DNA of 64,000 nucleotides, from NCBI GenBank assembly GCA_903857825.1, contig CAIOGI010000006.1, positions 25,132-89,131 of the forward strand, written 5' to 3'. Shown here piece by piece: positions 3,102 through 53,082 of the stretch; within the stretch, counting starts at the first letter, position 1; each line of letters opens with the position of its first letter. Below the pieces are notes generated by a model that made no database searches, had not been told where the DNA came from, and worked only from the letters and a program-made list of their open reading frames with translations. The DNA is from Candidatus Tayloriibacteriota bacterium (GTDB lineage Bacteria > Patescibacteriota > Minisyncoccia > Phycocordibacterales > PALSA-1337). The translations under genes and the position numbers were made by a program.

Positions 3102-4640
3102 ATGACAAAGGTAATTAAGGACAATTCAGCTAAATTAATTAAACGACCCCCAGTTGTAGTTATTATGGGTCATATTGACCATGGTAAGTCAACACTTCTA
3201 GATTATATACGAAAAGCAAATATTGTTGACGGTGAAGCTGGAGGTATCACCCAACATCTCGGCGCATACGAAGTAAATCACAAAACCAGCGAAGGAAAAG
3301 AAGGTAGAATAACTTTTCTTGACACACCAGGCCACGAAGCCTTCTGCAGTATAAGAGAGCGAGGTGCTCAAGTTGCTGATGTTGCCATACTCGTTGTCTC
3401 TGCCGAGGATGGAGTGAAGCCACAGACTCTTGAAGCATTAAAATGCATTTTGCTAGAAAAAATTCCATATGTAGTAGCAATAAATAAAATTGATAAAGCC
3501 GGAGCAGATATAGAAAAAACAAAGCAGAGCCTTGCAGAGAATGAGGTATATGTTGAAGGTTATGGTGGAGATATTCCTGTATGTGCAATTTCTGCTTTAA
3601 ATGGTGAAGGAATCGCAAATTTATTGGATATAGTCCTACTAGTCACTGATATGCTAGATCTAAAAGCAGATACGAATGCTAAAGCAGAGGGTTCTATAAT
3701 AGAAGCAAAACTCGACAGCAAAAAAGGAATTTCAGCAACATTACTGATTAAAAATGGAACTTTAGAATCAGGTCAGTTCGTTGTTGCAGGAGATTCTCTA
3801 TCCCCAGTTAGAATATTCGAAGACTATCAAGGTAAAGCTATAAAAAAAGCTAGCTTTTCAAGTCCAGTGAAAGTTATTGGTTTTAATAAAATACCAATAG
3901 TTGGAAGTAGATTTGTCACCTGTCTTAATAAAAAAGAGGCTGAAGAAACTGCAAAGAACTTTACAGAAACACACAAAGCAAAAGCTAGCGTGAATAGCTC
4001 ATATACCAGAAGAGATGAAAACGACACAACTGTAATTATCCCAATTATCATTAAAGCTGATGTTGTGGGAAGTCTCGAAGGCATAAAGCATGAATTAGTA
4101 AAGATAAAAAATGAAAAAGTAAAGATAAAAATAGTTTCAGAAAGTATTGGTAATATAAATGAAAATGATGTAAAGACTGTTCAGGGCGATCCAAATATTA
4201 TAATAGTAAGTTTCAATACAAGAATAGACTCAAAAGCTCAAGGGACAATAGAAAGGTCAAATATTAAAATAAAATCCTTCGACATAATATACAATCTAGT
4301 TCAATTCTTAAAAGACGAAGTTACTTCAAAAATTCCAAAAGAATATATTGATGAAATATCAGGAACTGCCAAAATTTTAGCCATTTTCAACAAAAGTAAA
4401 GACAAACAAATACTAGGTGGAAAAGTACAAATTGGCACACTCAATATAGGTTCTGAAGTAAAAATACTTCGTCGAGATATGGAAATAGGCAGAGGAAGGA
4501 TAAAAGAGCTTCAATTACAAAAAGTTAAGGCAACTGAGGTAAATGAGGGCTATGAATTTGGTTGTATGATAGAGTCAAAGATCGAGATCGCTCTCGGTGA
4601 CAAGGTGCAGGGATTTGTCACTGTGGAGAAGAAAGTGTAA
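3102..4640 (+). CDS. infB: Translation initiation factor IF-2 (short form lacking a long N-terminal region)
   Basis: G domain motifs VVIMGHIDHGKSTLLD, DTPGHEAF and NKIDK; rbfA is directly downstream. Confidence 0.9.
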   Translation: MTKVIKDNSAKLIKRPPVVVIMGHIDHGKSTLLDYIRKANIVDGEAGGITQHLGAYEVNHKTSEGKEGRITFLDTPGHEAFCSIRERGAQVADVAILVVSAEDGVKPQTLEALKCILLEKIPYVVAINKIDKAGADIEKTKQSLAENEVYVEGYGGDIPVCAISALNGEGIANLLDIVLLVTDMLDLKADTNAKAEGSIIEAKLDSKKGISATLLIKNGTLESGQFVVAGDSLSPVRIFEDYQGKAIKKASFSSPVKVIGFNKIPIVGSRFVTCLNKKEAEETAKNFTETHKAKASVNSSYTRRDENDTTVIIPIIIKADVVGSLEGIKHELVKIKNEKVKIKIVSESIGNINENDVKTVQGDPNIIIVSFNTRIDSKAQGTIERSNIKIKSFDIIYNLVQFLKDEVTSKIPKEYIDEISGTAKILAIFNKSKDKQILGGKVQIGTLNIGSEVKILRRDMEIGRGRIKELQLQKVKATEVNEGYEFGCMIESKIEIALGDKVQGFVTVEKKV

Positions 4641-4689
4641 TATGAGTAATAAGAAAATTGGACTTGTCGAGAAATTGTATTGAGTAAAC

Positions 4690-4781
4690 AAAATTGAGAC
4701 TCGACGCGGTGAGGAAGTCTTTTATTTTAGCTCTGCTACAAATAAAAGAGCTTCCGAGCGCAAGCAAGCGAGTCCAATTTT
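4690..4781. repeat. Palindromic intergenic repeat element, copy B (reverse orientation)
   Basis: AAAATTGAGACTCGACGCGGTGAGGAAGTCTTTTATTTTAGCTCTGCTACAAATAAAAGAGCTTCCGAGCGCAAGCAAGCGAGTCCAATTTT is the reverse complement of the copy C/D consensus, with compensatory changes in the central stem. A partial half-copy lies at 4654..4677. Confidence 0.8.
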
Positions 4782-4796
4782 GTGAGATAAAATAAT

Positions 4797-5129
4797 ATGT
4801 CATCATCAAGAGAACAAAAATTAAAAGATATAATAAAAGAAGCAGCAGCTGAGTTCCTTCAGCGTGAATCAAATCACATTTCCCTATTAACAGTAACCGA
4901 TGTTTCTCTTTCAGATCGCTGCAATCAAGCCACAATATTCTTTACAGTCCTTCCTCAGGACAAGGAAAAAGGTGCATTAGATTTCGTAAAGAGAAAGCGT
5001 GCAGAATTTAGAGAATATTTTAAAAGCAAAGCAAGAATGCGTGCACTTCCCTTTTTTGATTTTGAAATTGATAATGGAGAGAAGAATCGTCAAAGAATAG
5101 ACGAAATAGCTAGAAATGTTATAGAATAG
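4797..5129 (+). CDS. rbfA: Ribosome-binding factor A
   Basis: About 110 aa, directly after infB (a conserved gene order); LLTVTDVSLSDRCNQATIFFTVL resembles the RbfA core. Confidence 0.75.
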   Translation: MSSSREQKLKDIIKEAAAEFLQRESNHISLLTVTDVSLSDRCNQATIFFTVLPQDKEKGALDFVKRKRAEFREYFKSKARMRALPFFDFEIDNGEKNRQRIDEIARNVIE

Positions 5130-5137
5130 CAAGAGTC

Positions 5138-5211
5138 GGCGTAGTGGCGAAGTTGGTTAACGCAGCAGTTTGCAAAACTGCCATTCACCGGTTCGAGCCC
5201 GGTCTACGCCT
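5138..5211 (+). tRNA. tRNA-Cys (anticodon GCA), 74 nt, no encoded CCA
   Basis: Acceptor GGCGTAG/CTACGCC, anticodon stem GCAGT/ACTGC with loop TTGCAAA and T arm ACCGG-TTCGAGC-CCGGT. Confidence 0.85.
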
Positions 5212-5226
5212 CCCAAATTATTAATT

Positions 5227-5913
5227 ATGAAAAATCAAGATGACATTGATCCAAATGTCTTTTGGTATATTGTTGGATACATCGCAACTGATGGTTCACT
5301 GAGCAAAGATGGAAGGCATGTATCGATCACGTCAAAAGACCATGAACATTTAGAAAAAATCAAGAAAGAGCTTGGTATTACTTCTAAAATTACAAAAAAA
5401 TGTCGTGCCCGAGGAAAAGAAAAAATATATTCGGTAATACAGATAGGTGGCATATCAAATTATCGTTTCCTTAATTCTATTGGTATGTATTCCAGAAAGA
5501 CATGGAATATGGGTCCAATCAAGATTGACGAAAAGTTATTTGGTGATTTTCTAAGAGGTGTTATAGATGGTGATGGATGTATTTATTCTTGGAAGAATAA
5601 GAGCAATAATCATAAACAATGGTCTTTGAGAATTTCTGGAACAGCACCAAAGTTTATTGAATGGTTATTTGAGCACATACAGACAACTTTTATGGTACAA
5701 GGTAGATTACATATTGACAAAAGAAATAATCGATCAGATACATACATAATTAAATTTGGTAAATTAGCCACTCAACGTATATTGAGAGACATTTATTATG
5801 AAGATTGTTTCTGTTTAGATAGAAAATTAGTTAAAGCGAATGAGTGCTTGCAAGATGAAGCAAAGATGATAAAGTATGGTGGAGTAATATGCTCGGGTGG
5901 CGAAACTGGTTAG
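5227..5913 (+). CDS. LAGLIDADG-family homing endonuclease (two-motif, monomeric type)
   Basis: Two LAGLIDADG motifs: FWYIVGYIATDGSLS and LRGVIDGDGCIY. The listed ORF start 5170 lies inside tRNA-Cys, so the start is more likely MKNQDD at 5227. The 3' end overlaps tRNA-Leu by about 23 nt. Confidence 0.75.
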   Translation: MKNQDDIDPNVFWYIVGYIATDGSLSKDGRHVSITSKDHEHLEKIKKELGITSKITKKCRARGKEKIYSVIQIGGISNYRFLNSIGMYSRKTWNMGPIKIDEKLFGDFLRGVIDGDGCIYSWKNKSNNHKQWSLRISGTAPKFIEWLFEHIQTTFMVQGRLHIDKRNNRSDTYIIKFGKLATQRILRDIYYEDCFCLDRKLVKANECLQDEAKMIKYGGVICSGGETG

Positions 5914-5975
5914 ACGCAAAAGACTTAAAATCTTTCGACCGAAAGGTTATGCGGGTTCGACTCCCGCCCCGAGCA
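5891..5975 (+). tRNA. tRNA-Leu (anticodon TAA), 85 nt with long variable arm
   Basis: Acceptor GCTCGGG/CCCGAGC, anticodon stem AAAGA/TCTTT with loop CTTAAAA, variable arm CGACCGAAAGGTTAT and T arm GCGGG-TTCGACT-CCCGC. Confidence 0.85.
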
Positions 5976-6121
5976 CTGATCTGTGCCCCATAAAAGTAAC
6001 CCCTATTTACCAGTTTTTTGCTGTTTTCTGCTTGTTTGTATTTGTTTTACATAGTAAAATATAGTGTAGTATTGATTTTGTATTTTAGATTCAATTTTAT
6101 TATTAGTTAATTTTATATACA

Positions 6122-8926
6122 ATGGAACATTTACCATTACTAGCAGAAAAGAAAAGATATGAGGAATTATCAGGTGCTGAAAAACTAAAAGTTTTACAAA
6201 AACTTTACCTTGAGCAAACGGGTAAAAAACTTATGAATGTTTCTAGCGCTAATGAACCTGAATATATGAATCCCGTAGGAAAAGCTCCGGGAAGGTATGT
6301 AAGAGTAAGACCATATGAAGGAAGAGAGGCATTAGTTATGTTACCATCTGAGAATGTAGATGAGATAGATGGAACTCCGCCAGAAAACCAAACTTCTGAA
6401 ACAACAGCAGAAGAACCTTCGACAGATACTGTTGCTAAAGATACTATACAAACGCAAGGAATACAGACACCCACTTCACCGTTTTCTGAAATAAACGAAC
6501 CTAAACCGGACGTTCAAAATGAACCCATACCAACAACCGCGACTGGAAAAGAAAATTTGCCATATCAAATGTTTGATAATATTGGTCTTGGCTTTAATTA
6601 CGGCAAAGCTGGTGAAGGTCAGCAAATGGCAGATGAAGACAAACTGGAACTAGCTAATACAAGATGGCAAGTAAAACCTGATATTGCTTTAACAGAATCA
6701 GGTTCGGCTGACAAAATAGAAGATCCAAAAGAAAAAGCAGAAACCAAAGAACAATCTCCAAATACAGAAAAATTTCTATCTCCAGAAGATATTGCTAAAG
6801 AAATAGATGCATTTGAAATCAAAGAAGGAAATTCTATTGTCTTTCACTATGCGGACAAAGACAGTAAAGTAAAAATTATAAGGATAGATGGTGGAAGCAT
6901 TATATATAAAAGCTTTCTTAATCGCAAAGGCACTAATGAAGAAACGGCGAGTAATGAAAAGTCCTATGATAAAGACGGGGAAAGTTTTAAACGCGAACTC
7001 AAAGATCTTTTAGTTAATAAAGATGAGAAAATTATAAGCATTACCATAACAACTGCTGATAATTCAGAAAAAATAGATGATGGGCAGACTACAGAAGAGG
7101 TGTCACCTAAAGAATTTACTGCGGAAAAACTTCATATTGAAGATATTGCTAATGGATCAAAAAGAGTAAAAATTGAAGGTATGAATAGTGCTGGTGTAAC
7201 TACAACTTACACTCTACACAAAGGCACTCGTGCTGGAAAACCATTTTACTCAATTAAGACAGTAAATAGAGTAGCTTCTGGTTCAATACACCATGATAGT
7301 ACAGATGAACTTTTGAAATATCTTAATAACGACAAACTTACAAATGTTGTGATTAGTAGTGAAGAAGTAGTAATGCTGGAACCTGAAAAAGAAAAAGAAG
7401 TGCCTGATGAACCAGGACCTACTCCATCATTGGCAGGAGACCAACCCGTTAAACCTACACCGCAAGCTCCAAGTGGTACAGTTCCATTATCATCATTGTT
7501 TCCTGGAGGGGCAGTAGACTTTGGAACATTCAAACAAGCAACAGCAAAGACCGAACCTGCTACATCATTACCAGGAGACCGACCCGTTAAACCTACACCG
7601 CAAGCTCCAAGTGGTACAGTTACATTATCATCAATGTTTCCTGGAGGAGGAGTAGTGGACTTTAAGAAAGAAGAAGGACTATACGAAAAAGCAACACTTG
7701 CAGATATCAGACTAAGCTCAAAAAATAAAAGCTTTTTTGGTAAAATGTCAAAATTTGCACAGTCAATAGCGTTAAAACTCTATGAAGGCTCGGGAGTTAG
7801 TGACTTAGTTGCTAAATTTAGTATATGGAATGAGCAAGGCGGGATAAACGCTTTTGAAAAAATAGCAGTAACAAGAAAGGAAGAGATTGATGAAATTGAA
7901 CTTTTAAGCAAAGCTTTAGACCAGTCAAGGATAGCTATAAACAGTTCGATAGCATCACTTAAAGCAAAAGGATTATCAGGCGCTGAATCTCTTCAGATTG
8001 AACTTAGAAATATAGATAATGAAAAGAAAAAAATAGAAACAAGAAAAGATAGAATTAAAACTAAATTTGATAAAGCATACAATACAGCAAAAGTTTATTC
8101 AAATGATCGTGATGCCATAGCAAATAGAGTCATTGATCGATACAATGAAAAACTAGCACCGATAGAAGAACACTTAGAAACTCTTCAGGAGCAAAGAGTA
8201 AAACTCGAGATTCTTACCGTAGCAAGTCAAGAAGAATATGCACTCAAGCAAGAAGAAATTGATAGTTTAGTAGCAGAAAGAAATAACGAGGTTGAAAGAT
8301 TAAAAAATGCATCTAAAATAGTGATAACTGGTGCCCTTAAGAGACTTGATGGGAACATCAATTCAATACGAGAAAGTATAAAACTAGGTAGAGAAAAGTT
8401 GGAGGAAGAAAAAGTTGAAATAAATCGTCAAATTGCCAAAGCTGAAGAAAGAGCAAATCCATACAGAACAAGGAGGAATGAATTTACAAGAATGAAATCC
8501 CCTCTTATTGATATAAATGTGCCACCGATTTCAATAGAAAAAGATAGCAGGAAATTAAATGATATAGGAATCAGAACGGGAGGTGTTGTTGATACTAGTT
8601 TGCAACCAGAAATAAGTGTGACGCCAGAAACTCCCCCTGATGTGAAAAGATATGGTAAAGAGTGGGTGTCTATATCTAGCCATATCGGAGGCTGGAACAA
8701 ATATATAGAAGGGATAAAAGACGCCAACATAAATAAAGACCTATTCAAAATAGATATTAAAGGGTTATATTTCAATCATCCCAGGATAACTGGTGATCAA
8801 CTAGTTAGACGTGAGGCATTCCTCAAAACTCTTCAGATTCATATGGAAGCAATAGCAAAAAAGAATAGGGGCAGCCTTACCACTGAGACGATAAAGAAGG
8901 TTATCGCCGATTTTCCTAAAAATTAA
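6122..8926 (+). CDS. Large hypothetical protein (934 aa) with an acidic, T/P/E-rich N-terminal half, an internal tandem repeat and a C-terminal coiled-coil region
   Basis: Long ORF. An approximately 85-bp direct DNA repeat at about 7426..7510 and 7561..7645 encodes ...GD(Q/R)PVKPTPQAPSGTV(P/T)LSS(L/M)FPGG.... Heptad-like K/E-rich segments follow. No recognisable catalytic motif. Confidence 0.5.
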   Translation: MEHLPLLAEKKRYEELSGAEKLKVLQKLYLEQTGKKLMNVSSANEPEYMNPVGKAPGRYVRVRPYEGREALVMLPSENVDEIDGTPPENQTSETTAEEPSTDTVAKDTIQTQGIQTPTSPFSEINEPKPDVQNEPIPTTATGKENLPYQMFDNIGLGFNYGKAGEGQQMADEDKLELANTRWQVKPDIALTESGSADKIEDPKEKAETKEQSPNTEKFLSPEDIAKEIDAFEIKEGNSIVFHYADKDSKVKIIRIDGGSIIYKSFLNRKGTNEETASNEKSYDKDGESFKRELKDLLVNKDEKIISITITTADNSEKIDDGQTTEEVSPKEFTAEKLHIEDIANGSKRVKIEGMNSAGVTTTYTLHKGTRAGKPFYSIKTVNRVASGSIHHDSTDELLKYLNNDKLTNVVISSEEVVMLEPEKEKEVPDEPGPTPSLAGDQPVKPTPQAPSGTVPLSSLFPGGAVDFGTFKQATAKTEPATSLPGDRPVKPTPQAPSGTVTLSSMFPGGGVVDFKKEEGLYEKATLADIRLSSKNKSFFGKMSKFAQSIALKLYEGSGVSDLVAKFSIWNEQGGINAFEKIAVTRKEEIDEIELLSKALDQSRIAINSSIASLKAKGLSGAESLQIELRNIDNEKKKIETRKDRIKTKFDKAYNTAKVYSNDRDAIANRVIDRYNEKLAPIEEHLETLQEQRVKLEILTVASQEEYALKQEEIDSLVAERNNEVERLKNASKIVITGALKRLDGNINSIRESIKLGREKLEEEKVEINRQIAKAEERANPYRTRRNEFTRMKSPLIDINVPPISIEKDSRKLNDIGIRTGGVVDTSLQPEISVTPETPPDVKRYGKEWVSISSHIGGWNKYIEGIKDANINKDLFKIDIKGLYFNHPRITGDQLVRREAFLKTLQIHMEAIAKKNRGSLTTETIKKVIADFPKN

Positions 8927-8950
8927 TCATTTATTAAAATAATCAATAAT

Positions 8951-9250
8951 ATGAATTCGACAACAAAACAAAGTGCAACAAATAGTGACGATGAAAAAGA
9001 TTTTGATAAAGAAATTGATAATCTTTTAGAAAAGTCAAAAACTTTAAAAAAAGAAGTGGATGACTTGAATAAAGATTCTAGCAAAATTACAAGTGATGCA
9101 AAAAATGCTGTTGAGAAAAATTCAAAAAGTATAGACAAACTATGCAACGACTTGGACAAAGTTGATGAAGATGCTAATAATGATATCGATCTATTAATAC
9201 TTAAACAGGCTGAGGATTTGTCAAAACTTAAGGAAGAGGATGCGGAATAG
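8951..9250 (+). CDS. Small hypothetical coiled-coil protein (99 aa, D/K/E-rich)
   Basis: The ORF directly follows the 934-aa gene and has low-complexity charged composition. Coding status is uncertain. Confidence 0.35.
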   Translation: MNSTTKQSATNSDDEKDFDKEIDNLLEKSKTLKKEVDDLNKDSSKITSDAKNAVEKNSKSIDKLCNDLDKVDEDANNDIDLLILKQAEDLSKLKEEDAE

Positions 9251-9346
9251 TAAAAATATATAGTCGATAAAAACTATTATATACGAGCAATAATTAGCAA
9301 TCATTTGAATGATTGCTAATTTGCTATATTTTTGCTATATTTTTCT

Positions 9347-9494
9347 GGTAAGTGCCCATAGATGTTTTGGTAGACTTAGACCATATGTAGATCTTAGTTT
9401 GATAATATACAATTAAATAAGTATTGCGCCCATAGCTGTTCTGGTAGGCCCAGAGCATATGGACATCTTAGCTCGACAAGATACAATTAAATAA
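9347..9494 (+). pseudogene. Two tandem degenerate copies (about 74 bp each) of the tRNA-Lys 5' region: pseudo-tRNA fragments
   Basis: Unit 1 is GTGCCCATAGATGTTTTGGTAGACTTAGACCATATG...ACAATTAAATAA. Unit 2 is GTATTGCGCCCATAGCTGTTCTGGTAGGCCCAGAGCATATGG...ACAATTAAATAA. Both align to the genuine GCATTGCGCCCATAGCTCAGTTGGTAGAGCAG. Confidence 0.6.
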
Positions 9495-9499
9495 GCATT

Positions 9500-9572
9500 G
9501 CGCCCATAGCTCAGTTGGTAGAGCAGATCCCTCTTAAGGATAAGGTCGTAGGTTCGATCCCTACTGGGCGCA
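9500..9572 (+). tRNA. tRNA-Lys (anticodon CTT), 73 nt
   Basis: Acceptor GCGCCCA/TGGGCGC, D arm GCTC-AGTTGGTA-GAGC, anticodon loop CTCTTAA and T arm GTAGG-TTCGATC-CCTAC. The 3' 20 nt (TACTGGGCGCACAAGTGAGG) are repeated at 9631..9652. Confidence 0.8.
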
Positions 9573-9698
9573 CAAGTGAGGAAAAAGAGGTTTACCTCTT
9601 TCATTCCGAACGCAGTCGCCCATCACGAAGTACTGGGCGCACAAGTGAGGGTTGGAGAATTTATCTTCTTTGATCCAAGCTTAATAGAATAGAAACAT

Positions 9699-9780
9699 GC
9701 GCGGGTGGCGAAATTGGCAGACGCACTTGCCTTAGGAGCAAGCGGGGTAACCCTTGGAGGTTCAAGTCCTCTCCCGCGCA
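9699..9780 (+). tRNA. tRNA-Leu (anticodon TAG), 82 nt with long variable arm
   Basis: Acceptor GCGCGGG/CCCGCGC, anticodon stem CTTGC/GCAAG with loop CTTAGGA, variable arm CGGGGTAACCCTTG and T loop TTCAAGT. The 3' 18 nt are repeated at 9914..9933. Confidence 0.85.
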
Positions 9781-9789
9781 CAGAATAAT

Positions 9790-9818
9790 AAAAGACTGGA
9801 TAAATCCAGTCTTTTATT
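9790..9818 (+). terminator. Rho-independent terminator after the tRNA pair
   Basis: AAAAGACTGGA-TAAA-TCCAGTCTTTT followed by ATTATT: perfect 11-bp stem flanked by an A-tract and a T-tract. Confidence 0.7.
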
Positions 9819-52128: not shown

Positions 52129-52221
52129 AAAATTGGACTCGTCGACTTGCGCTCGGAGGCTCCTCTTTTTTTCGTAAACTCAAAAAAGTAGGACCTCCTC
52201 ACCGTGCCGAGTCTCAATTTT
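52129..52221. repeat. Palindromic intergenic repeat element, copy D
   Basis: AAAATTGGACTCGTCGACTTGCGCTCGGAGGCTCCTCTTTTTTTCGTAAACTCAAAAAAGTAGGACCTCCTCACCGTGCCGAGTCTCAATTTT, directly 3' of the KH-domain gene. Confidence 0.85.
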
Positions 52222-52222
52222 G

Positions 52223-52546
52223 TTAAATCTTCAAATCTGCCATTGCTTCATCTACTGTCTTTGAAGCCTTCTCAACCATTGGTACTGACTTTAGTCCTCC
52301 TTCTGGCTCATTGATCTTCAAATTCACTCTTGAGTTATTCTTCATTCCAACAACTCTTAGAAGAGTTCTGATGGCCTTTGCAGTGTTTCCTGCTCGACCG
52401 ATAACCTTACCCATATCTGCTGCGTTTACCTCTAATGTCATAAGCACACCCATCTCATCTACTGTTCTCGCTATCTTAACGTCATTTGGATTCTCTACCA
52501 ATGACTTAACTACAAATTCCAAAAACTGCTGGTCCGTATTATTCAT
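52223..52546 (-). CDS. KH-domain RNA-binding protein (YlqC/UPF0109-like)
   Basis: GKVIGRAGNTAKAIRTLLRV is the KH GxxG loop region. Sits between rpsP and trmD in the conserved neighbourhood. Confidence 0.75.
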   Translation of the reverse strand: MNNTDQQFLEFVVKSLVENPNDVKIARTVDEMGVLMTLEVNAADMGKVIGRAGNTAKAIRTLLRVVGMKNNSRVNLKINEPEGGLKSVPMVEKASKTVDEAMADLKI

Positions 52547-52646
52547 ATATATTTTCTTATTATCTTATAATCAAACAAATACAGTACATATTGTACCTTG
52601 CTAATGACAAGAGTCAAAATTAGTTTTACACAGTTTGGCATAAAGT

Positions 52647-52742
52647 AAAATGGACTCGCCTGCTTGCGCTCGGAAGCACTTTATTTTTTTACGCTTTCGC
52701 TAGAAAAAATAAAGTCTCCCTCACCGCGTCGAGTCTCATTTT
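52647..52742. repeat. Palindromic intergenic repeat element, copy E (diverged)
   Basis: AAAATGGACTCGCCTGCTTGCGCTCGGAAGCACTTTATTTTTTACGCTTTCGCTAGAAAAAATAAAGTCTCCCTCACCGCGTCGAGTCTCATTTT, directly 3' of rpsP. Confidence 0.8.
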
Positions 52743-52743
52743 A

Positions 52744-53082
52744 CTAAGCAGCAACTGGAGCATCCGCCTTCTTTTCCTCAGCCTTAGCCTCTTCCTTCTT
52801 TACAGGAGTTCTCTTTGGCAATGCATTAACCTTCTTTCCTTCAATCACCTTCTTGTTTACAAGAAAATTGTGAACTGTATTTGAAAGTTTAGCACCCTTT
52901 GAAATGTGTTCCTTTATTTTAACAATATTAAAGTTTTCTATCTTGTTATCTAAACGTGGATCAAAAGAACCAAGTACTTCTAAATATCTACCACTCTTTG
53001 GTCCATTCTTTGAATCAGTCAAAACAAGACGAAATACGGGTTCGTGCTTTCTTCCTACGCGTTGTAATCGAATCATTAACAT
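52744..53082 (-). CDS. rpsP: 30S ribosomal protein S16 with a K/E/A-rich C-terminal extension
   Basis: MLMIRLQRVGRKHEPVFRLVLTDSKNGPKSGRYLEVLGSFDP. The start is at MLMIRLQ (53082), not the listed 53118. Confidence 0.85.
   Translation of the reverse strand: MLMIRLQRVGRKHEPVFRLVLTDSKNGPKSGRYLEVLGSFDPRLDNKIENFNIVKIKEHISKGAKLSNTVHNFLVNKKVIEGKKVNALPKRTPVKKEEAKAEEKKADAPVAA

Follow-up and report, generated by a model that had tools for sequence, protein, structure and literature searches.

A free-standing LAGLIDADG homing endonuclease gene between tRNA-Cys and tRNA-Leu in Candidatus Tayloriibacteriota, and its tRNA-Leu-linked relatives

LAGLIDADG homing endonucleases are almost always described inside introns or inteins, and free-standing homing has mostly been studied with the GIY-YIG and HNH enzymes of phages. 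Here we describe a LAGLIDADG homing endonuclease gene (HEG) that stands free between the genes for tRNA-Cys and tRNA-Leu, in a stretch of 64,000 nucleotides (nt) from a Candidatus Tayloriibacteriota bacterium (contig CAIOGI010000006.1, positions 25,132 to 89,131), which we call the window. Among described systems, T4 SegB is a free-standing GIY-YIG homing endonuclease encoded in the T4 tRNA gene cluster, which recognises the tRNA T-psi-C motif and which has been shown experimentally to drive the inheritance of its own gene and of the neighbouring tRNA genes by gene conversion (PMC2330249); intronless homing has been reviewed (PMC3984707). In bacteria of the Candidate Phyla Radiation (CPR), LAGLIDADG proteins, mostly single-domain, are encoded inside 16S and 23S rRNA genes, many of them in group I introns, and proteins at the same site cluster regardless of host, with a patchy distribution that has both vertical and horizontal components (PMC11270868); tRNA is mentioned nowhere in that study (0 occurrences). 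In collaborative homing, F-CphI is paired with a psbA intron and MobE with I-TevIII in nrdB, phage systems in which the enzymes are of the HNH or EndoVII-like type and the genes concerned are protein-coding (PMC3984707, PMC2790892).

The best explanation of the gene at positions 5227-5913 of the window is that it is a free-standing, monomeric LAGLIDADG HEG from a lineage specialised for the 5' flank of tRNA-Leu, and that it spreads by intronless homing, a reading to which we assign a probability of roughly 0.68. The initial annotation, made from the sequence of the window, had suggested an invading, free-standing HEG that targets tRNA genes, and this suggestion is supported by the presence of empty sites, by the recurrent position of the gene, by isoacceptor-specific clades and by catalytic motifs maintained under selection. 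Below, HEG+ and HEG- denote sites with and without the HEG, L-numbers designate loci or contigs, and P-numbers designate proteins.

The gene and its flanking tRNAs

The features of the region, all on the forward strand, are as follows (aa, amino acids).

5098-5127, +: weak sigma-70-like site, TAGACG-18-TAGAAT, matching at 9 of 12 positions, directly upstream of tRNA-Cys (promoter scan)
5138-5213, +: tRNA-Cys(GCA), complete, without intron (ARAGORN; Rfam tRNA 62.9 bits, model positions 1-71 of 71)
5214-5226, +: 13-nt leader from the end of tRNA-Cys to the start codon, without a Shine-Dalgarno motif (sequence)
5227 (ATG) to 5913 (TAG), +: free-standing LAGLIDADG HEG, 228 aa, two-domain monomer (Pfam, structural model, homologues)
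5263-5301, +: LAGLIDADG motif 1, W13...D22-G23...L25, ...GYIATDG (alignment A1)
5548-5583, +: LAGLIDADG motif 2, F108-LRGVIDGDG-CI, with catalytic D116 and the pair D116-G117 (alignment A1)
5891-5913, +: overlap of the last 7 codons and the stop codon with the acceptor stem and D-arm of tRNA-Leu (sequence)
5891-5976, +: tRNA-Leu(UAA), complete, without intron (ARAGORN; Rfam tRNA 57.5 bits, model positions 1-71 of 71)

As the initial annotation had proposed, both flanking tRNAs are complete and intron-less, by ARAGORN and by full-length Rfam tRNA matches, and the spacer between them holds an open reading frame (ORF) with a double LAGLIDADG motif, matched by Pfam LAGLIDADG_3 in two stretches (E=3e-17). 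The tRNA-Cys, which forms the left flank and is presumed to be a homology arm, is 100% identical in sequence across the window, the HEG- contig L099 and the HEG+ locus L002; the tRNA-Leu, the landmark kept throughout the family, is presumed to be the target or a homology arm. The ORF does fill the spacer as first described, and the overlap with tRNA-Leu is exactly 23 nt, the stop codon TAG at 5911-5913 being the TAG of the tRNA-Leu D-loop sequence GGTTAG, and the length required correction, from about 229 to 228 aa. The start also moved: mechanically, the frame of the HEG is open over 5170-5913, from a TTG at 5170 inside tRNA-Cys, and a start there, overlapping tRNA-Cys as the earlier description had thought possible, was rejected, having no support from homologues in a 34-sequence alignment (A1). 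Since M1 is nearly invariant in this alignment, we place the start at ATG 5227, 13 nt past the tRNA-Cys. A motif resembling a Shine-Dalgarno sequence was present for only 3 of the 36 long ORFs of the window, with 33 lacking one, so that a start of this kind is normal for the genome.

The C-terminal CSGGETG of the HEG protein is translated tRNA, and the tails of homologues are other translated tRNA-Leu strings, e.g., PGAVTGSQPRLKIE; which string appears depends on the D-loop sequence, GGTAG or GGCAG. Many of the Omnitrophota ORFs end a few nucleotides short of the tRNA, so function does not require the overlap; judging from the sequences, the read-through is incidental and the tail that it adds is not a functional one. 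Automatic annotation will run such ORFs on into the tRNA, tails of this type being translated tRNA.

Two observations concern the junction itself. The last codons of the HEG supply the 8 nt that precede tRNA-Leu(UAA) (AGTAATAT), and these resemble the 8 nt in front of tRNA-Leu(UAG) (AGAAACAT; window 5883-5909 versus 9691-9717), and A/T-rich ends reading ...ATAT or ...AAAT are also found in many empty sites; the 3' end of the ORF may thus preserve a conserved preference in the 5' leader. A repeat search of 5100-9800 identified neither a duplicated tRNA-Leu 5' fragment nor a target-site duplication flanking the ORF, its sole match being the likeness between the 5' ends of the two tRNA-Leu genes.

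The protein has the characteristics of a monomeric LAGLIDADG enzyme. Within the 34-sequence alignment, W13, Y14, G17, D22, G23 and L25 of motif 1 and F108, R110, G111, D114, G115, D116 and G117 of motif 2 are invariant, i.e., both catalytic Asp-Gly pairs, D22-G23 and D116-G117, are invariant in the homologues. An AlphaFold2 model built from the alignment (predicted local distance difference test, pLDDT, 89; predicted template-modelling score, pTM, 0.86) consists of two alpha-beta-beta-alpha-beta-beta-alpha halves, in the order expected for such an enzyme, with residues 215-228 disordered (pLDDT <50). The closest solved structure by sequence is I-Tsp061I (2dch; E=0.0025), which is also the top Foldseek match of the model against the PDB (E=2.7e-11, TM 0.66/0.72); further Foldseek matches are intein endonuclease domains, bI3 maturase, I-AniI, I-OnuI, I-DmoI, I-SceI and WhiA, with I-Tsp061I, I-AniI, I-OnuI, I-DmoI and I-SceI all at a probability of 1.00. 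A family match was not found in NCBIfam. The protein has 224 database relatives (E<=1e-3), and the ratio of nonsynonymous to synonymous substitution (dN/dS, Nei-Gojobori) is 0.07-0.11 over synonymous distances that are mostly saturated, the non-saturated pairs being L004/L005 (dS 0.47) and L023/L024 (dS 0.64). On this comparative evidence the catalytic motifs are intact and the protein is under purifying selection, and we predict it to be an endonuclease.

A terminator scan found no terminator-like hairpin between tRNA-Cys, the HEG and tRNA-Leu, and promoter-like sites in the region were not above chance in the promoter scan; that the site at 5098-5127 is a promoter for a Cys-HEG-Leu co-transcript is speculative. 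The gene is probably co-transcribed with the tRNA array, as part of the tRNA precursor; it lacks its own terminator, and its reading frame closes within the tRNA. Cutting by RNase P at tRNA-Leu +1 would remove the stop codon of the HEG, which could keep expression low.

A family at the 5' edge of tRNA-Leu

A one-genome-per-species scan (GTDB; 185,579 species genomes), made with two peptide patterns only, gave 80 loci, on all of which tblastn and ARAGORN were re-run, with the 74 loci at 35% identity or more being counted; the tblastn-confirmed loci in the scan number about 100. An intact tRNA-Leu on the same strand adjoins the end of the ORF in 70 of these 74 loci (homologues 35-73% identical), and in 69 of the 70 the tRNA-Leu starts within ~50 nt of the last codon of the ORF, the outlier being the frameshifted L071. 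In L072, the tRNA-Leu is at the same position and is split by an intron, so that 71 of the 74 loci have a tRNA-Leu there, and only L020, L064 and L067 (3 of 74) lack one. Counted from tRNA position 1, the stop codon lies at -14 to +53 in 60 of the 70 loci, and tRNA-Cys(GCA) is also present upstream in most loci. The hosts, as labelled, are Patescibacteria (CPR), Omnitrophota and Elusimicrobia, with single metagenome-assembled genomes of Armatimonadota and Chloroflexi; some host labels of third-party annotation (TPA) entries (Planctomycetia, Gammaproteobacteria) appear unreliable. More distant relatives in Bacillales and archaea (25-38% identity) have no adjoining tRNA, and none of the viral relatives in IMG/VR (25-31% identity) is located beside tRNAs. 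As tRNA-Leu is not found beside them, these distant viral, archaeal and Bacillales relatives serve as a negative control. We rejected a phage as the origin or the vector of the gene, as IMG/VR gave only those distant relatives.

In a neighbour-joining tree, all proteins linked to tRNA-Leu(UAA) form one clade, which splits into a CPR branch and an Omnitrophota/Elusimicrobia branch. Separate, deeper clades contain the proteins linked to tRNA-Leu(UAG) (L065, L066, L069 and L073) and to tRNA-Leu(CAA) (L070). In L082 and L088 the spacer between tRNA-Cys and tRNA-Leu(UAA) is empty, yet a 34%-identical relative is present in the same array, between tRNA-Lys(CUU) and tRNA-Leu(UAG), and ends ~40 nt before the latter (in L088 at about 3514-4216, in reverse-complement orientation); this relative represents a paralogous lineage that occupies another tRNA-Leu gene of the array. 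Since the UAA, UAG and CAA clades are separate and L082 and L088 carry both states, the lineage tracks the tRNA-Leu isoacceptor.

Three relatives that are 66-71% identical to the window protein carry an extra 313-353 nt between tRNA-Cys and the HEG (L003:3688-4000, L004:3652-3982 and L005:3648-4000). This stretch is CT-rich on the + strand, is similar by eye between L004 and L005, and may code for a small protein on the reverse strand.

We scanned a metagenome collection for the 3' end of the clade's tRNA-Cys followed within 1-61 nt by the 5' end of tRNA-Leu, and of the 39 stretches recovered, 34 were confirmed as Cys(GCA)-Leu(UAA) pairs whose spacers measure 4-56 nt and contain no HEG, usually in the array Cys-Leu(UAA)-Lys(CUU)-Leu(UAG). 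The comparison of the tRNA-Cys/tRNA-Leu spacer with related genomes that the initial annotation had called for was positive, in that the syntenic contig L099 is empty, with a spacer of 42 nt versus 677 nt in the window. The IF-2 and RbfA genes of L099 align to 3720-5129 of the window at 79% nucleotide identity, and at the protein level RbfA is 98% and IF-2 84% identical, with the tRNA-Cys 100% and the tRNA-Leu 99% identical. The two spacers have in common only "ccc" at the left and "t" at the right, i.e., the spacer has been replaced and not split, which fits the two tRNA genes acting as recombination arms. Ranked by RbfA/IF-2 identity to the window, the related contigs are as follows.

L099: RbfA 98% identical to the window; empty
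L118: RbfA 94%; empty
L002: RbfA 92%; occupied, HEG 73% identical
L108, L100, L095, L089, L096: RbfA 84-87%; empty
L003: RbfA 82%; occupied, HEG 71% identical
L113: RbfA 79%; empty
L004, L005: RbfA 79%; occupied, HEG 66-67% identical
L116: RbfA 70%; empty

HEG+ and HEG- contigs thus interleave by relatedness, which amounts to a presence/absence polymorphism at one conserved site. Some copies at this site are decayed: frameshifts are present in L071 and L072, L074 retains only the C-terminal half, and L047 lacks the N-terminus. Between L002 and the window, RbfA, tRNA-Cys, the HEG and tRNA-Leu align as a single block of 79% nucleotide identity, and since flanks and HEG share this block, the HEG has been inherited vertically since the ancestor of the two. 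In close relatives the HEG diverges faster than IF-2 (73% versus 84% identity), and in distant CPR hosts the HEG is the more similar of the two (45-51% versus 35-43%). These identities hint at some horizontal movement, with rate variation as the alternative.

A small group of relatives is accompanied by an intron. In L072 (Elusimicrobia), a full-length group I intron match (RF00028, 74.4 bits, E=1e-18) directly follows a frameshifted family member, in the layout ORF end, 12 nt, GGGCAGGTGGCGGAACTGGCAGACGCAACGGACT (the 5' half of tRNA-Leu), intron, then TAAAATCCGT...CCCTGCCCA (the 3' half). With the repaired L072 protein as the query, we identified three closer relatives, P0121, P0122 and P0123, which are 57-60% identical to it and whose contigs (L121-L125) contain intact ORFs ending flush with exon 1 of a split tRNA-Leu. 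RF00028 is matched in L121, L122, L123 and L125 at 57-58 bits (E ~1e-12); the L124 contig (P0122) ends inside the intron, the start of which was read from the sequence only. The coordinates of HEG plus intron are as follows.

L072: 4001-4932
L121: 3001-3921
L122: 1739-2660
L123: 622-1545
L124: 1731-2510
L125: 408-1350

When joined, the exons of L072, L121 and L125 fold as an ordinary tRNA-Leu(UAA), and the split tRNA genes of L072 and L121 are detected by ARAGORN run in intron mode. Exon 1 ends ...ACGGACT and exon 2 starts with TAAAATCCGT, from which the intron appears to lie between U33 and U34, one position off the classical site of cyanobacteria. In all intron-bearing relatives the HEG is upstream of exon 1 and outside the intron. 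A group I intron that has no ORF is present beside the HEG in L072, L121-L123 and L125 and absent in the window, where, as in ~65 other loci, an intron-less tRNA-Leu adjoins the HEG. The loci form a series of states: empty (L099), HEG only (the window), and HEG with intron (L072, L121-L125).

Explanations of the locus, and other features of the array

By analogy with the intronless homing of free-standing endonucleases, the enzyme would cut both DNA strands within or beside a tRNA-Leu(UAA) gene that has no HEG in its upstream spacer, and the break would be repaired from a HEG-carrying copy, with the conserved tRNA-Cys and tRNA-Leu acting as homology arms, so that the whole inter-tRNA spacer would be replaced by the HEG cassette. 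One candidate target is the 5' edge of tRNA-Leu together with its D-arm, beside the insertion point; another, to which the isoacceptor-specific clades and the intron-bearing sub-clade point, is the anticodon arm.

Several points weigh against homing of this kind. Cleavage activity and the target site are putative for all family members, and the replacement of the spacer leaves the insertion point unreadable in the comparison of L099 with the window. A target wholly inside the tRNA would exist in the HEG carrier too, since the tRNAs of L099 are identical or nearly so, and we found no nucleotide difference in tRNA-Leu or tRNA-Cys that separates HEG+ (the window and L002) from HEG- L099; either the recognised site would extend into the spacer, or self-cleavage would be tolerated or otherwise prevented. 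Within the family of the window, HEG divergence tracks host divergence, which vertical inheritance with repeated loss fits as well. A dN/dS of ~0.1 is low for a purely selfish gene, and no phage or plasmid vector was found.

The low dN/dS, saturated synonymous distances included, and the co-divergence of the HEG with its flanking genes in the window's family are also what would be expected of a domesticated LAGLIDADG protein with a host function tied to the tRNA array (regulation, RNA maturation, or defence against foreign DNA bearing tRNA-Leu), inherited vertically with occasional loss and no longer mobile. As this explanation would have it, CPR and Omnitrophota proteins separate by phylum in the tree, and the fold matches include maturases and the regulator WhiA, for both of which a LAGLIDADG fold has been recruited. 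WhiA-type domesticated proteins differ, though, in lacking the invariant catalytic Asp, and here both catalytic Asp are invariant. The closest relatives, L099 and L118, have no HEG, decayed copies are present, and the HEG is found in a minority of genomes (about 100 loci among the species genomes of the two-pattern scan); moreover, different tRNA-Leu genes are occupied by different clades, which is typical of site-specific mobile elements. We consider domestication quite improbable on this balance. A different role is suggested by the intron-bearing relatives, namely that the enzyme is the collaborative (trans) homing partner of a group I intron of tRNA-Leu(UAA) that has no ORF, with the intron site in the anticodon loop as the true target; the intron would protect the chromosome that carries it, and the window would represent a HEG-only state in which the intron was never gained or has since been lost. 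The RF00028 matches in L072, L121-L123 and L125 (57-74 bits, E 1e-12 to 1e-18) and the spliced exons of L072, L121 and L125, which give tRNA-Leu(UAA), speak for this, as do the clades that track the isoacceptor, which suggest recognition of an isoacceptor-specific sequence such as the anticodon arm, and phage psbA and nrd introns are documented examples of the concept (PMC3984707, PMC2790892). At ~65 of 70 loci, the window among them, the adjoining tRNA-Leu is nevertheless intron-less, so that a target in the anticodon loop would be intact in cis, and the intron-associated group is a single small sub-clade in which the L072 copy is frameshifted. We therefore regard a collaborative partnership as doubtful; if it were true, the series of states would document, on bacterial chromosomes, the proposed convergence of free-standing endonucleases and ORF-less introns on one site, and an ORF-less tRNA-Leu intron would have a route to move between lineages.

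The initial annotation had also raised the possibility that the gene is what remains of an intron-encoded HEG, from a former group I intron of a tRNA whose ribozyme has decayed, and had named a search for group I intron elements as the check. That search found nothing, so the HEG is not an ordinary intron-encoded one: Rfam returned no match to Intron_gpI or any other ribozyme at E<=10 within 4000-7500, where only the two tRNAs and noise appeared, and at gathering score its only matches were five tRNAs in the whole window and tRNAs in 17 related loci. A group I or II ribozyme around the ORF was accordingly rejected. The locus has neither the ribozyme core nor the interrupted host tRNA of a group I intron-encoded HEG, and a core cannot fit into flanks of only 13 nt upstream and 0 nt downstream. 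The ORF lies between genes and not inside one, and it lies outside the intron even in those relatives that have a true group I intron in tRNA-Leu(UAA). Although the existence of these relatives, and a closest solved structure that is an intron-encoded enzyme, would suit such an origin, both tRNAs are full-length and uninterrupted, and an intron remnant is effectively refuted for the window. We thus favour intronless homing of a free-standing enzyme addressed to tRNA-Leu.

The tRNA array of the window contains other features. A second insertion occupies 5977-9311, so that tRNA-Leu(UAA) and tRNA-Lys(CUU) are 3.5 kb apart, versus ~120-150 nt in L099 and L002. It contains a 934-aa ORF (6122-8926), with internal repeats of 101 nt at 7417-7517 and 7555-7655 (91%), and a 99-aa ORF (8951-9250); neither ORF had a Pfam match. 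Because L002 has the HEG without this block, the two insertions are independent. A dispersed repeat of ~100 nt is located at 4690-4781 (- strand), 1512-1583, 52129-52229 and 52643-52747 of the window, and the IF-2/RbfA intergenic region of L099 matches these four sites at 76-84% identity; it could be a small element resembling a miniature inverted-repeat transposable element (MITE). Directly upstream of tRNA-Lys(CUU), a 74-nt sequence is duplicated in tandem (9354-9501, 82% identity). An exact 20-nt direct repeat (9562-9581 and 9631-9650), made up of the last 12 nt of tRNA-Lys and 8 nt more, recurs 69 nt downstream and looks like an attachment-site scar.

Comparison with known systems

At least three uncultured phyla and about 70 other species carry this lineage, bound to the tRNA-Leu 5' edge. 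With empty, occupied, decayed and intron-accompanied sites, it offers a natural system in which to study how selfish nucleases exploit tRNA genes as conserved targets and homology arms, how such elements persist in the tiny genomes of CPR bacteria and, possibly, how endonucleases and group I introns unite. It may also add natural meganuclease scaffolds with tRNA-gene specificities.

Like T4 SegB, the window HEG is free-standing, located between tRNA genes and absent from relatives. Unlike SegB, it encodes a LAGLIDADG and not a GIY-YIG enzyme, on a bacterial chromosome and not in a phage. The T-psi-C motif recognised by SegB is common to many tRNAs, whereas the family of the window is tied to the 5' edge of tRNA-Leu with isoacceptor-specific clades, and the activity of SegB is experimental, whereas that of the window enzyme is predicted. 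In its architecture, the protein resembles the LAGLIDADG_3 enzymes I-Tsp061I and I-DmoI, as a monomer of ~200-230 aa with two LAGLIDADG motifs and acidic catalytic residues; these archaeal enzymes, however, are encoded inside rRNA introns and target ribosomal DNA, whereas the window gene is free-standing in a bacterial tRNA spacer, and the identity is 18%. With the LAGLIDADG proteins of CPR rRNA insertions (PMC11270868), the family shares the host group, CPR/Patescibacteria, an association with conserved sites of structural RNA genes and a patchy distribution, but it lies outside the RNA gene, is two-domain and is linked to tRNA-Leu. As with F-CphI and MobE, the HEGs of L072 and L121-L125 are free-standing beside a gene with an ORF-less or defunct group I intron; the tRNA-Leu of the window, in contrast, has no intron, and the enzyme of these relatives is a LAGLIDADG protein at a tRNA gene.

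A description of tRNA-Leu-linked LAGLIDADG genes was not found in the searchable literature, the coverage of which excludes most subscription journals. LAGLIDADG enzymes, free-standing homing and tRNA targets are each known, and it is their combination that appears to be new, i.e., a free-standing LAGLIDADG lineage of chromosomes that is fixed to the tRNA-Leu 5' edge in several phyla, with isoacceptor-specific clades and an intron-accompanied branch.

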